The translations under genes were made by a program, and so were the position numbers. Shown here one piece after another: positions 2,200-9,475 of a DNA stretch of 64,000 nucleotides. Each line of letters starts with the position of its first letter. Positions within the stretch are counted from its first letter, which is position 1. This stretch comes from Octopus sinensis. Its lineage: Eukaryota. A model generated the notes under the pieces. The model had not been told where the DNA came from. It was given only the letters and a program-made list of their open reading frames with translations, and ran no database searches. The stretch lies in NCBI RefSeq assembly GCF_006345805.1, contig NC_043011.1, positions 54,200,464-54,264,463 on the forward strand. Reading direction: 5' to 3'.

Positions 2200-2432
2200 A
2201 AGGCGACGACTTGGCAGAAACGTTAGCGCGCCGGGCGAAATGCTTGGCGGTATTTCGTCTGTCCTTATGTTCTGAGTTCAAATTCCGCCGAGGTCGACTT
2301 TGCCTTTCATCCTTTCGGGGTCGATTAAATAAGTACCAGTTACGCACAGGGGTCGATATAATCGACTTAATCACCTTGTCTGTCCTTGTTTGTCCCCTCT
2401 ATGTTTAGCCCCTTGTGAGCAATAAAGAAATA
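2200..2432 (+). mobile_element. SINE family A, subfamily with Tx1-like 3' tail
   Basis: aggcgacgacttggcagaaacgttagc head, gagttcaaattcc B box, gtcgactttgcctttcatcctttcggggtcgat central domain, ends tttgtcccctct...aataaagaaata. Confidence 0.9.
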
Positions 2433-2615
2433 AGAATCGTTAGCACGCCGGGCGAAATGCTTAGCGGTATTTCGTCTGTCTTTACGTTCTGAATTCAAAT
2501 TCCGCCGAAGTCGACTTTGTCTTTCATCCTTTCGGTGTCGATAAATTAAGTACCAGTTGCGTACTGCGATCGATGTAAATCATTTCGGGCCTTGTGCCCA
2601 GCGTAGAAAATGATA
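2433..2615 (+). mobile_element. SINE family A, second copy (host of the preceding copy)
   Basis: Begins agaatcgttagc; same B box and central domain; ordinary tail ggccttgtgccca...gtagaaa. Confidence 0.85.
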
Positions 2616-3162
2616 TTGAGTCTAATCACTGATTGGAAACAATGAACAGCCAAACAACAATGTTTCAACTATTGTAAAATGAGTTGTGTGGGTTTCAGGA
2701 TATGTCTGTCTGTCTGTTTGTCTATCTGGAGAGGGAAAGAAACAAGGAATTGATGTATGAACATCCCAAAATACATCAACTTAACTATGAGCTTTATTAA
2801 TAATAGGTCGTACGGTGTTCAATGCTAAGGAGGCAGCTTTTGAGCGAAATTAAATTATGAACTATTTGTGAAAGTTATGTTTTCCTTCTTTCTATCCTGT
2901 GTATGTACACGTATATATAATATATATTATATATATATATATATAATATATATATATATATATATATTATGTGAAATAGAAAGATGAATAATCTTGTAGT
3001 AGATTAATCAAAAGTTTAAACCGATACCTTGGTAGCAAAAATCACGTTGTAGAATGAAATAAACGATTTCTGTTCAATCTGCGTTCAGCTCCATTTCTTA
3101 ATTCACCAATAATAAATATATATAATATATATATATATATATATATATATATATAATGTGTG

Positions 3163-3411
3163 TGGAGGCGCAGTGGCCCAGTGGTTAGGGTAGCGGACTC
3201 GCGGTCATAGGATCGCGGTTTCGATTCCCAGACCGGGCATTGTGAGTGTTTGTTGAGCGAAAACACCTAAAAGCTCCACGAGGCTCCGGCAGGGGTGGTG
3301 GTGATCCCTGCTGTACTCTTTCACCACAACTTTCTCTCACTCTTACTTCCTGTTTCTGTTGTACCTGTATTTCAAAGGGCCGGCCTTGTCACTCTCTGTG
3401 TCACGCTGAAT
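3163..3411 (+). mobile_element. tRNA-derived SINE (family D), 3' truncated
   Basis: ggaggcgcagtggcccagtggttagg A box and ggtttcgattccc B box with tRNA-like spacing, followed by a unique body. Confidence 0.8.
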
Positions 3412-3570
3412 AAATATGGAGGAACAAATATGGTATTATTGGACGCTCAGGAAAGAAGGAGGGTTTATCGTTTCGAGCGGAACTCTTCGTCGGTAACATA
3501 GAAGGAAAGATTCAGAGAAGGAAAGACAGAGGAAAAAAAAATCGCCAACGGTACACACGCGGTCACGGTG
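3412..3570 (-). mobile_element. Penelope-like terminal fragment with degenerate hammerhead motif
   Basis: Minus strand 3464-3497 reads ccgacga-a-gag-ttccg-ctc-gaaac; next to a (TA)n tract. Confidence 0.5.
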
Positions 3571-5850: not shown

Positions 5851-6287
5851 TATATATATATATATATAAATAATCCGAAAAGTATAGTATTAAATATCCA
5901 TATCCATCACGGCTGATCTTACCAGTCAGTTCCGCGTAAAGAATACAATATACCCACTCTTCTGACAGTGCATCCTTTCCTTGATATTTGGTCTCTTAGA
6001 CGACTCACGCGCGTGTGTATGTATATATATATATATATATATATATATATATTATATATATATATATATATATATTATATATATATATATATTGACTCAT
6101 CTAAAATGGAACAAAAGCGCAATAGGGGACAATAAAACATTCGGACAGATAGACGATACAAAAGCGGACAGGAGAAACAACATTCAGAAGGACAGGCAAA
6201 AAAGACGGGTCATTCGTGGCCTTCTTTCCTCAGTCAAGTTACCAGAAGTCCTTACAGTTTTGAGACAGTTCGATCTGGTTGCCCACT

Positions 6288-7178
6288 TTTATTCTTCAAC
6301 ATGTTTCAGTCATTTGACTGCAGCCATGCTGGACCACCACCTTAAAGGGTTTTAGCCGAAGAAATTGACCCCAGGACTTAGTCTTTGTAAGCGTAGTACT
6401 TATTCTATCGGTCTCTTTCGCCGAACGAATTTACTGACGGCGGAGGTACAGACAGACTAACACACACATACAAACACACATATATATCCGCTCTCTTCTA
6501 TCTTTTCAAAAACTTTTTTCCTAGCGTTCAAGATTTTCCTCTCGTTCTGGCCTAACGACCCTCCATGTTTGTTTTCGTCCGGTTTTCTTGTGTGTCATAA
6601 CTGTCCCAATTTTGTTCCCAACTTTGACCCTCATAAATCCTAAATTTTATTTTAGAATTTATGGGAGCAATTTTCTTTGAAGACTCATATTGTCATTGAA
6701 TGCTCGAAACGAGGAGTAGATAGACAGCCGACAACTGATGAAGGGTCGTTTCTCTGTGTTTACTTGTACCGTTCTCCATTTATCCTTCGTTGTTTACGTA
6801 TTTCATTTTATTTGCACCGTTGGTGACGTCCTGTACCCACACACACACACATATATATTACACATATATATATAAATACATATAGATATACATACATATG
6901 TATATATATACATAATATATATATATATACATATATATATATATATACACTATATACATATATATATATACACTATATATATATATATATATACATATAT
7001 ATATACATACATATGTATGTGTATATATATATATATATATATATATATATATATGACAAATCCGCTCACAAGGATTTGGTCAGCCCAAGGCTATAGAAGA
7101 CACTTCCTTAAGATGCCACGCAGTGGGACTGTACTCGGATCTATGTGGTTGGGAAACAAGCTTCTTACCACACAGCCA
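6288..7178 (-). mobile_element. CORE-type SINE family B, split (3' part 6288-6480, 5' part 7057-7178) by an insertion in its internal microsatellite
   Basis: Both halves match the full copy at 18175-18570; the intervening 6485-6840 has ttgaaga...ctcgaaac and ctgatgaag motifs (Penelope-like). Confidence 0.8.
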
Positions 7179-7539
7179 TACGTTTGTATGTATGTATGTA
7201 TGTATGTATGTATGTATGTATATGTATGTATATGTATGTATGTATACAAAGTTTCACTTCTCTCAGACTGTGGAATGTCTGAAATGTTTATTATTATTTA
7301 TATGTTCAAGTGTTGCTGTATATATTTGTGCACGGAGAATAAACTAGCGACTATCTAAATAGATTGCCACTTATATTATCTAGCAACGTCCAACAGCTTT
7401 CGCTAAATTTACAATACAGAGTTGTGAATAATATGTCACCTGCTATTCTATCGTTCTGTGTGTCTGAATGGCTGTATGCATGGCTGATAGTGACGTTTGT
7501 CTGTGTTAGTAGCTCCACCTAACTTTATGTCCGATAGTC

Positions 7540-7854
7540 CGTCTGTCTGTCCGTCTGCCTGCCTATCTATCTATCTATCTATCTATCTATCTATCTATCT
7601 ATCTATCTATCTATCTATCTATCTATCTATCTATCTATCTATCTATCTATCTATCTATCTATCTATCTATCTATCTGTCAGTCTGTCTAGCTCTCTGTAT
7701 CTAACTATCTATCTATCTATCTATCTATCTGTCAGTCTGTCTATCAGTCTGTCTAGCTCTCTGTATCTAACTATCTATCTATCTATCTATCTATCTATCT
7801 ATCTATCTATCAATCAGTCTGTCTAGCTCTCTGTATCTAACTATCTATCTGTCT
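7540..7854. repeat. (CTAT)n/(CTGT)n tetranucleotide array
   Basis: Direct reading. Confidence 0.95.
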
Positions 7855-9475
7855 GGGAAAAGTCAGTTGGCTTGCGGCTCGGCACCTGGAGAAGCAGGCC
7901 CATGCCGTCCAACAGCGTCTCCATCGTGGGACGCTGGACCAACAGACCGGTTAAACTGTCTTTACGTTCTGAGTTCAAATTCTGAGTCTGGTTCGGTCCT
8001 GGCCTTCAAATGGAGAAGAACTGGGGCGAAATAACAACCAATGTGGCCACCTTCACCCAGTAATAGGCCGAGAGGAAGCTATCCCTAAAATGTCGGGCGG
8101 AGGTGGCGAACGCCTACATCGCATCCGTCATCGATTATCGTCTGACCGTCGTGCCTTGTCCCGACCCTACCATCACCAAACTGGAACGTATGCTCTTCTG
8201 AATCTTGTGGAAAGGAAACGTTCCGATGGTTAGGCGATCCATTTGCTGTCAACACCCGCAAAATGGAGGGCTAGGCATGCCGTGGTTGATGATGCGCAGA
8301 CATGCGCTGAGACTGCGACATCTCCGGCGCTTCATAGACGACGGTGAACAGGTGTGGACGCCGTTTGTGCGGCGCGCTTTCCCTCAGCTTGTTTACTTGG
8401 CCGAACTGCAGTCGTGGATCAAACAGTGACCGAGGCTGGGCGAATGGCACCGCGAGTATCGCGTTGCTCTCAAGCAACTCTGCAGTCCGGGACCAAACTT
8501 GTGCGACTTCATTACAACAAAGGCATTCTATAGAGGATTAGTGGAAGGGAGGTGTGACGACGTTCTCGGGCAGAATCTGGACGTCGACAAGAGACACCTG
8601 ACCCACCTGTTCAGGACAACTTTTGGGCCGGGACCTATGGACAATCACCAAAGATCCCTGTCCTGGCAGTGCTATCGAGAAGCATTACCTGTTCAGGATA
8701 AGCTCTACAGGCATGGTTCGAGACACACCGGACCGACTTACCCGAGACGCGGTCAGAGCGACGAAACTGATCTGCACGCACTCGTGCAGTGCCCAACTAT
8801 TTCGGACCTGTGGGCTTATGCCGAACGGCTGCTGTCAAGTGTGGGACGAGTCCGCCTGTCGGCCGAGTCTATTGTGGAAATTGCTCCGCCACCTTCCCTC
8901 AACCGGGAAGGCAAGGCAGTCTTCATCGTACTGGTGGTCATGGTGAAAGAATGTGTGTGGTGGACTCGAGCGAAAGGATTAGAGACAAACACTTACCTCT
9001 CTGACCAATCGCTCATCAACTTTTTCAAGTACCACATGAAAAGGAAGGTGGGAATGGAGAGGTAGGTTTTGTCTCGTAAAAGACTCAAAAAAAGGTAGGT
9101 GAATGTAGCAAAGATGGTGCGTGCGAGTGATGAAACCACTTTGAGCATGATCCTGTAAATCGAAGAGGGAGAGAGTGAGAGCACTTTGCTCTCATGTGTT
9201 TATTCCCTCCCTGCCTGAGGTTACTGTGGTCTTTTTCGTTGGCTTTTCTTTCTACGGATAAACCTAATCTTGCTTTTTACATTTTTAAAACTCTTCTGTG
9301 ATACACGATCCCCTTTTATCGTTTTTTCCCCGATCCCTTCTGATAGGAATTTTACTCTTTTTCTTATTTTCCCCTTATTTTTCTTATTTCATTTTTTGTT
9401 TTCATTTTCGAAAAGTAAAGCTCTACATTTGTATTTGTCCCCTCTGTGTTCAGCCCTGTGTGGCCAATAAAGAAA
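7855..9475 (+). mobile_element. Tx1-clade (L1 group) LINE, 5' truncated, ORF2 C-terminus with stops
   Basis: Translates KSVGLRLGTW...ERKLSLKCRAEVANAYIASVIDY...LWKG...GGLGMP...W.CYREALPV.DKL...(C)PR(C)GQSDETDLHALVQCP; T-rich 3' UTR ending aataaagaaa at 9475. Confidence 0.92.

Follow-up and report, generated by a model that had tools for sequence, protein, structure and literature searches.

The question raised by this locus is whether a short interspersed element (SINE) family of Octopus sinensis has taken over the 3' end of a long interspersed element (LINE) of the Tx1 clade, and which LINE copies it. The locus is a stretch of 64,000 nucleotides of contig NC_043011.1 (assembly GCF_006345805.1, positions 54,200,464 to 54,264,463 of the forward strand), here called the window, which contains several copies of one SINE family, SINE A, and an L1/Tx1-like LINE copy. 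The branch of SINE A that carries a LINE-like tail of about 60 nt is named SINE-T and has a unit of 231 nt. With a probability of about 0.7, SINE-T is a tRNA-type branch whose last 60 nt are LINE-like and which is copied in trans by a sister Tx1 LINE, either family B-like or unsampled, and not by the family associated with ATCT repeats (family A) to which the window LINE belongs.

The last 42 nt of the window LINE (9434-9475) match three places in the window without gaps: 36/42 at 2389, 36/42 at 56601 and 33/42 at 57802-57761 (-), with BLAST E-values of 1e-8, 1e-8 and 3e-4, respectively. The next-best place in the window shows 24/42, and 300 shuffled tails give best window matches with a mean of 23.7 and a maximum of 27. 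This recount agrees with the first-pass annotation of the window, which had reported 36/42 at 2389-2430 and 56601-56642 and a close likeness at 57761-57802 (-), and had seen different tails on the SINE A copies at 2433, 28585, 41645, 49066 and 57610; all of these are of the (ATT)n type. Its proposal of a tail swap stands in that the SINE tail is replaced, but the replacement is about 60 nt long and family A matches only the last 42. The range given for its finding is 2389 to 9475; the LINE copy itself is 5'-truncated and covers only about 7855-9478, with a conserved end that runs 3 nt further, to 9478. The tail is the LINE's own 3' end, since 30 of 30 fetched family A loci, the best family copies, end in it; the case that it had itself named as adverse, in which 9434-9475 is a SINE remnant adjoining the LINE, is thereby ruled out. 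In the first 600 kb sampled from the genome, 49 of 51 matches to the tail are SINE-linked and two are LINE-linked. Chance, or convergence on a pyrimidine-rich sequence ahead of a polyadenylation signal, would suit a tail region that is of low complexity and terminates in AATAAA. It is refuted by the shuffled tails, which do not exceed 27/42, by exact words of 12-13 nt common to specific LINE families at equal distance from the 3' end, and by the size of the target site duplications (TSDs) and the landing site of SINE-T, which agree with those of the LINEs, so that its probability is negligible.

SINE-T shows the features of a SINE: it is 231 nt long, non-coding, high-copy, dispersed and flanked by TSDs. 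A random sample that takes 10 kb at each of 80 evenly spaced places (800 kb of a 2.72 Gb genome) contains 68 SINE units with the T tail and 89 with other tails. Extrapolated genome-wide, this gives about 2x10^5 SINE-T tails and about 2% of the genome, values to be read as an order of magnitude only because the copies are clustered in arrays. SINE-T is the youngest tail class of SINE A and its most abundant branch, with a median divergence of 6.8% (n=65) versus 13.6% (n=29), 16.1% (n=20) and 16.5% (n=38) in the other tail classes. In O. vulgaris a SINE and LINE expansion is placed at a Jukes-Cantor distance of 0.065 (PMC13282606; this and the other papers are cited for those parts of their text that were accessible), and the SINE-T value here is 0.068. 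Of 101 testable insertions, 32 are flanked by TSDs of 14-23 bp, where shuffled pairs give 0.1; eight of 109 insertions were dropped for low-complexity flanks, and TSDs shorter than 14 bp are invisible to the method. The LINE copies show TSDs of similar size, 13-26 bp in 11 cases. These are the many independent SINE-plus-tail copies with TSDs that the first-pass annotation had named as support for its proposal.

One SINE A head and body carries at least three alternative tails. A Dong/R4 LINE origin was sought for the (ATT)n tails: five of 152 tail matches lack a SINE body, and none of them is LINE-like. The SINE head contains A-box-like (positions 11-21) and B-box-like (positions 74-84) motifs, read by eye against the general box consensus, and its ends pair in the predicted fold and by eye. 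ARAGORN returns 0 tRNA genes on the SINE, and Rfam gives 0 matches over 57500-58100, hence no head derived from U1 or U2 small nuclear RNA (snRNA) by Rfam. A T run longer than 3 nt is absent from 82 of 132 full-length copies, a scarcity compatible with predicted read-through by RNA polymerase III. The rare-variant rate is lowest in the last 31 nt of the tail (0.024 versus 0.034-0.039), which is partly an alignment-end effect.

The LINEs were sampled by a search for zf-RVT, which scored 150 of 24,039 candidates, by 40 further 3' ends and by three DNA searches. Five larger families (A-E) and several smaller families or single copies have a pyrimidine tract, a short hairpin and AATAAAGAAA in common at their 3' ends, which lack poly(A). 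Set against these families, the SINE-T tail is a mosaic: its 5' half shows a median identity of 0.78 to family C and 0.57 to family A, and its last 30 nt an identity of 0.85 to family B and 0.73 to family A. The 12-mer GCCCCTTGTGGG is found in 18/22 family B ends and 39/68 SINE-T tails and in no end of families A (0/21), C, D and E, and the 13-mer TTGTCTGTCCTTG is found in 11/18 family C ends and in none of families A (0/21), B, D and E. The best LINE match to the SINE tail is 40/45 over the last 44 nt and 50/62 over 60 nt. As in other SINE/LINE pairs, SINE-T has its 3' end in common with LINEs of the same genome, here in the form of a C/B mosaic.

The first-pass annotation had taken the window family itself as the partner. 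That family A gave the tail and mobilises the SINE would agree with the ungapped 36/42, with a median identity over the last 44 nt of 0.77, near the 0.78 of family B, and with a similar age (pairwise identity 0.89 in A versus 0.88 in B). However, ATCT lies within 14 nt downstream in 19/21 family A copies examined and follows 0/68 random SINE-T tails, and family A lacks both diagnostic words and terminates in AAGTT, not in AAATA. Since the ATCT association is absent from SINE-T and both shared words are absent from family A, this family is probably not the partner; the target mismatch already largely refutes it, and its role is improbable. Several points weigh against the sister LINE preferred here as well. 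One is the near-equality of families A and B over the last 44 nt at similar age. Another is that three pattern searches of the genome turned up no LINE that ends in exactly the SINE tail: of the 64 matches to the first, 19 distinct loci were inspected, 15 of them SINE-linked and four without an adjacent upstream LINE, the second gave seven matches, all SINE-linked, and in the third the 100 matches inspected out of 1,049 are, by eye, all SINE or truncated copies. A single partner LINE with a near-identical tail is thus missing from these searches. Finally, the tail hairpin is weak, with z-scores of -0.5 to +0.9 in the window copies and -2.0 in one family B copy, and has three consensus pairs; on these values a strong conserved tail structure is not shown. 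Because the tail is shared and the insertions land at few preferred motifs, SINE-T likely uses the enzymes of the tail-sharing, Tx1-like LINEs, probably not those of the window LINE.

Intact second open reading frames (ORF2) of these LINEs, 1,126-1,140 aa long, contain APE, RT and zf-RVT domains according to Pfam in sister-family copies, and the window copy keeps only the C-terminus, a 211 aa piece with 46-50% identity to the ORF2 ends of families B-E. Four families supply eight ORF2 frames of 1,025-1,140 aa (L249-L252, L264-L267), and these elements are potentially active. A zf-CCHC motif is found in 3/3 ORF1s, one of them under the cut-off. The closest solved protein to ORF2 is human L1 ORF2 (E 2e-68, versus 2e-24 for R2), and among the named homologues of a sister ORF2 the best, at 60% identity, comes from Argonauta hians. 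The predicted proteins, with APE, RT and an L1-like ORF2, place the LINEs in the L1 group, and architecture together with family-specific targets makes membership of the Tx1 clade likely. No named Tx1 element is present among the 120 homologues listed or the 10 clusters; for the recently active LINEs of O. vulgaris, the accessible text of PMC13282606 lists L1-Tx1 and no other class of the L1 group. The sequence downstream differs by family: ATCT in family A, AGAAA in one subgroup of family B, one fixed multicopy sequence in family E, and U1 snRNA in one copy. The window copy itself has an ATCT repeat upstream and degenerate ATCT downstream. Family E (L082-L087, L301) is very young, with a pairwise identity of 0.99; all its copies are followed by the same sequence, and several zf-RVT matches lie about 5.3-5.7 kb apart, a spacing which suggests tandem arrays. 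At L257:8158-8321 (= L081), a full U1 snRNA sequence (RF00003, 125 bits) lies only a few bases past the end of an L1/Tx1-like element; from this one copy, a U1-targeting LINE family is possible.

The target specificity that had been expected of the tailed SINE is visible as a landing preference. The first 4 nt after the tail in the 68 random copies are GGTA in 30, AGAA in eight and TATA in eight, with backgrounds of 0.3%, 0.7% and 1.4%, respectively, and the 41 tails without a following SINE body show GGTA in nine, AGAA in seven and TATA in seven. These motifs are target DNA, since the motif starts both TSD copies in most cases; none was found in the 10 nt before the TSD. The landing class tracks the tail subtype (chi-square p 7e-8, n=102): GGTA-like, AGAA-like and TATA-like sites number 1/9/6 for the GCAAT subtype, 20/1/0 for GTAAT and 37/4/11 for GTAGT, in loci not picked by SINE queries, with classes that allow a mismatch and array units that are not fully independent. 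One site is shared with a LINE. AGAAA follows the tail in five of 25 family B ends listed, and one LINE of this type (L388), flanked by an 18 bp TSD, has entered a SINE at position 15; upstream of it lie tandem ORF1-only elements whose tails abut the same motif. Position 15 is also used by GCAAT-type SINE-T copies, among them the one at 2202 in the window, and position 48-49 is adjoined by a LINE from a different family. The ORF1-only elements (L388:1-3040) are about 1.75 kb long, apparently without ORF2, with a Tx1-type tail and adjoining an AGAAAC motif, and are apparently a HAL1-like non-autonomous Tx1 derivative. A head variant of SINE-T (L037, L047, L155; positions 43 and 48) has G->C at position 48 in 15/60 solo copies, which removes the GGTA site of its own head and would make these copies poorer self-targets.

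The three motifs may be chosen in two ways. Several partner families with the same Tx1 tail might each prefer one SINE subfamily and set the motifs through their endonucleases, with no part for RNA-DNA pairing; the LINE families do differ in their downstream sequence (ATCT, AGAAA, the fixed sequence, U1 snRNA), and in Tx1 elements the endonuclease mainly sets the target according to Kojima (2015, PMC4494074). Yet the motif lies wholly downstream of the junction with none upstream, the SINE-T subfamilies differ by only 1-2 nt in their last 20 nt, and none of the LINE families sampled has GGTA as a regular target. Furthermore, in four of 32 TSDs the class motif is present in the downstream, element-side copy and absent from the upstream one (three by several letters); two of 32 show the reverse, by one letter, and weigh against pairing. 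Choice by endonucleases alone is a tentative alternative, well below an even chance, and the balance of mismatched TSDs modestly favours pairing of a few RNA bases past the tail with the primer strand. A co-transcribed target sequence that aids specificity is cited for other LINEs (PMC4494074).

With such pairing, a mechanism can be proposed. One tail exchange at SINE position ~171 would have brought the SINE family under an active Tx1 lineage, with the burst of about 2x10^5 copies as its outcome. Reverse transcription would begin directly after AATAAAGAAATA, and RNA read through past AATAAAGAAATA would pair with the nicked target strand. Each source copy would therefore favour sites that resemble the bases just downstream of it (GGTA, AGAA, TATA), and sources flanked by a SINE would accordingly be directed to position 48 or 15 of further SINE A copies. 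The new cDNA at a SINE A would usually join by homology, replace the host head and yield [1-231][48-end] arrays inside the TSD of the host. Taken whole, the picture of an animal SINE of 200,000 copies that ends in a Tx1-derived tail, is programmed in its landing by a few read-through RNA bases and overwrites the promoter-bearing heads of its older kin, is doubtful and rather unlikely to hold in all its parts.

The last step concerns the arrays. Among the 68 random tails, 26 abut a SINE body, 23 from position 48 and three from position 15. Classical nesting (host head, TSD, insert, TSD, rest of host) is shown only by the window copy at 57759. Almost all other arrays are [1-231][48-end] and are enclosed as a whole by the TSD, and the window composite 2202-2612 is built likewise. 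The simple TSD model of arrays fails, since private variants at positions 48-60 are common to adjacent units in only 5/50 cases; together with the T-type heads, this rules out arrays made of host head, TSD and insert. In arrays that end in an old tail, the head of the first unit is T-type (G36 in 18/18, versus 22/70 solo old-tail copies), and in 17/19 arrays private changes are more numerous in the old-tail last unit than in the first (p 0.002). Replacement of the head through homology during insertion would account for these arrays, and we lean slightly towards it. Two points weaken the age contrast: the T-ended arrays divide 19 versus 7 without significance (p 0.06), and the contrast is inflated, with loci picked for likeness to a young copy and old-subfamily letters counted as private.

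The [1-231][48-end] arrays could also arise among the RNAs, through a template switch at position 48 or through transcripts that read across nested copies, with no replacement of a host head; this would alter only the array step of the mechanism. The outer TSD brackets the whole array without a host-head remnant, units are weakly co-inherited in 49 arrays (Mantel rho 0.24, p 0.03), and template switching in SINEU is described by Kojima (2015, PMC4494074). At L389:2631-7850, a 4.8 kb LINE that adjoins SINE position 49 has a full SINE-T directly at its 5' end, with no TSD between the two, and the three units together are enclosed by a single 14 bp TSD; the junction of SINE-T and LINE is likely a template jump from LINE RNA to SINE RNA. 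An origin at the RNA level is opposed by the older look of last units, by genomic SINE heads that do serve as targets, with TSDs around the insert (57759 in the window; L388) and by the diversity of unit pairs, with only six second-unit pairs closer than 4% among the 49 arrays. Because of this diversity, copying of the arrays from few masters is not favoured. The RNA-level origin falls somewhat short of an even chance, and head replacement is kept as the array step. For array L383, contigs of four public runs show the left flank joined to the SINE head in three runs of one organism, and contain no piece over the right flank or across the array.

The features of the window are collected in the following table.

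Table 1. Repeat features of the 64,000-nt window, in window coordinates.
Feature	Position	Strand	Remarks
TSD, left copy	2184..2199	+	16 bp, 1 mismatch; brackets whole 2202-2612 composite; right copy 2613-2628
SINE-T, full-length	2202..2432	+	GCAAT-type tail 2373-2432, then AGAA
SINE A, body from position 15	2433..2612	+	(ATT)n-type tail; second unit of 2202-2612 composite
L1/Tx1-like LINE copy, family A	7855..9478	+	5'-truncated, decayed, ATCT-associated; 81-87% to other genomic copies, 7855 to ~9478-9495
SINE A fragment in window LINE	7956..7982	+	21-27 nt; gap there in other family copies shown
ORF2 C-terminal fragment	8430..9065	+	211 aa; weak zf-RVT PF13966 match, E 0.006, below cut-off
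Conserved LINE 3' terminus	9434..9478	+	short stem-loop and AATAAAG motif; at end of 30/30 best family copies
SINE A	28585..28819	-	non-Tx1 tail
SINE A	41645..41775	-	non-Tx1 tail ending in (ATT)n
SINE A	49066..49245	+	non-Tx1 tail ending in (ATT)n
SINE-T, 5'-truncated	56485..56644	+	from position 72; 14-15 bp TSD starting GGTA, 56471-56484 and 56645-56658
SINE A, host of nested SINE-T	57592..58040	-	5'-truncated, other tail; own 13 bp TSD, both ends
SINE-T, full-length, nested	57759..57989	-	at position 48 of older SINE A; 12 bp TSD 58001-57990 and 57758-57747

The window also shows two local tandem duplications, at 14972-16753 (period about 790 bp, 89%) and at 31470-33402 (period about 640 bp, 97%), and a 170 aa open frame at 418-930 (-) which has no Pfam match and which we take to resemble the C-terminal end of a CR1/L2-type LINE.

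Among known systems, the octopus SINEs OK, OR1 and OR2 were reportedly described by Ohshima and Okada in 1994. The SINE classes tRNA-Deu and tRNA-Core are named for octopus genomes (PMC8967140); these families are abundant, like SINE A, and tRNA-type, as SINE A appears to be, and the accessible parts of PMC8967140 and PMC13282606 describe no Tx1 tail or self-targeting. The SINE A body motif is not present in the searchable full text nor in three of the four supplements of PMC4758252, and part 1 of the four parts of the MetaSINE supplement shows no likeness to SINE A by eye. In the literature searched, which includes the accessible parts of PMC8967140, PMC10294476, PMC5753468, PMC4758252 and PMC4824008, no SINE with a Tx1-derived tail and no mention of this octopus family was found; Repbase, Dfam, SINEBase and subscription papers lie outside this search, and a Repbase note could exist. 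Tail exchange, stringent tail sharing and Tx1-mobilised SINEs are already known, and it is the shared tail of a SINE and a Tx1 LINE that was not found there. No host function is shown for SINE-T.

Stringent SINE/LINE pairs have a short 3' end in common, with tails of about 45-100 nt (Ohshima, 2013, PMC3747384); Table 1 of that paper, as far as accessible, contains no Tx1 partner, and its L1-clade partners are only plant or algal, LINE1-1_ZM and L1-1_CR. The exchange of tails on one head and body is described by Kojima (2018, PMC5786205), with RTE and Vingi as the examples and no Tx1 occurrence in the accessible text. The Tx1 clade contains elements with different targets: Tx1L in Tx1D, Keno in U2, Kibi in (TC)n and Koshi in (TTC)n (PMC4494074). 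The LINEs of O. sinensis resemble them in target type, since targets differ by family and microsatellite, snRNA and transposon targets all occur, here including (ATCT)n and a SINE head. The nearest system is that of SINEU-1/2/3 and Tx1-Mar of crocodilians, SINEs inferred to be moved by Tx1 LINEs (Kojima, 2015, PMC4494074), which SINE-T resembles in the inferred Tx1 mobilisation, in the preference for sites inside another repeat and in tandem insertions. SINEU families have snRNA heads, poly(A) tails and 137 to about 7,700 copies per family, and no LINE with a shared 3' end was found for them (PMC4494074), whereas SINE-T has a putative tRNA-type head and a LINE-like tail without poly(A), numbers about 2x10^5 copies and prefers its own family as the repeat to land in. 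For SINEU, the published Tx1 case, target preference is the sole basis of the pairing, and SINE-T would be a clear pairing of a SINE with Tx1 at the sequence level, in which the presumed tail exchange coincides with the youngest and largest burst of the SINE family and in which near-identical tails with different landing motifs offer a natural test between endonuclease and RNA-DNA pairing in Tx1 targeting.

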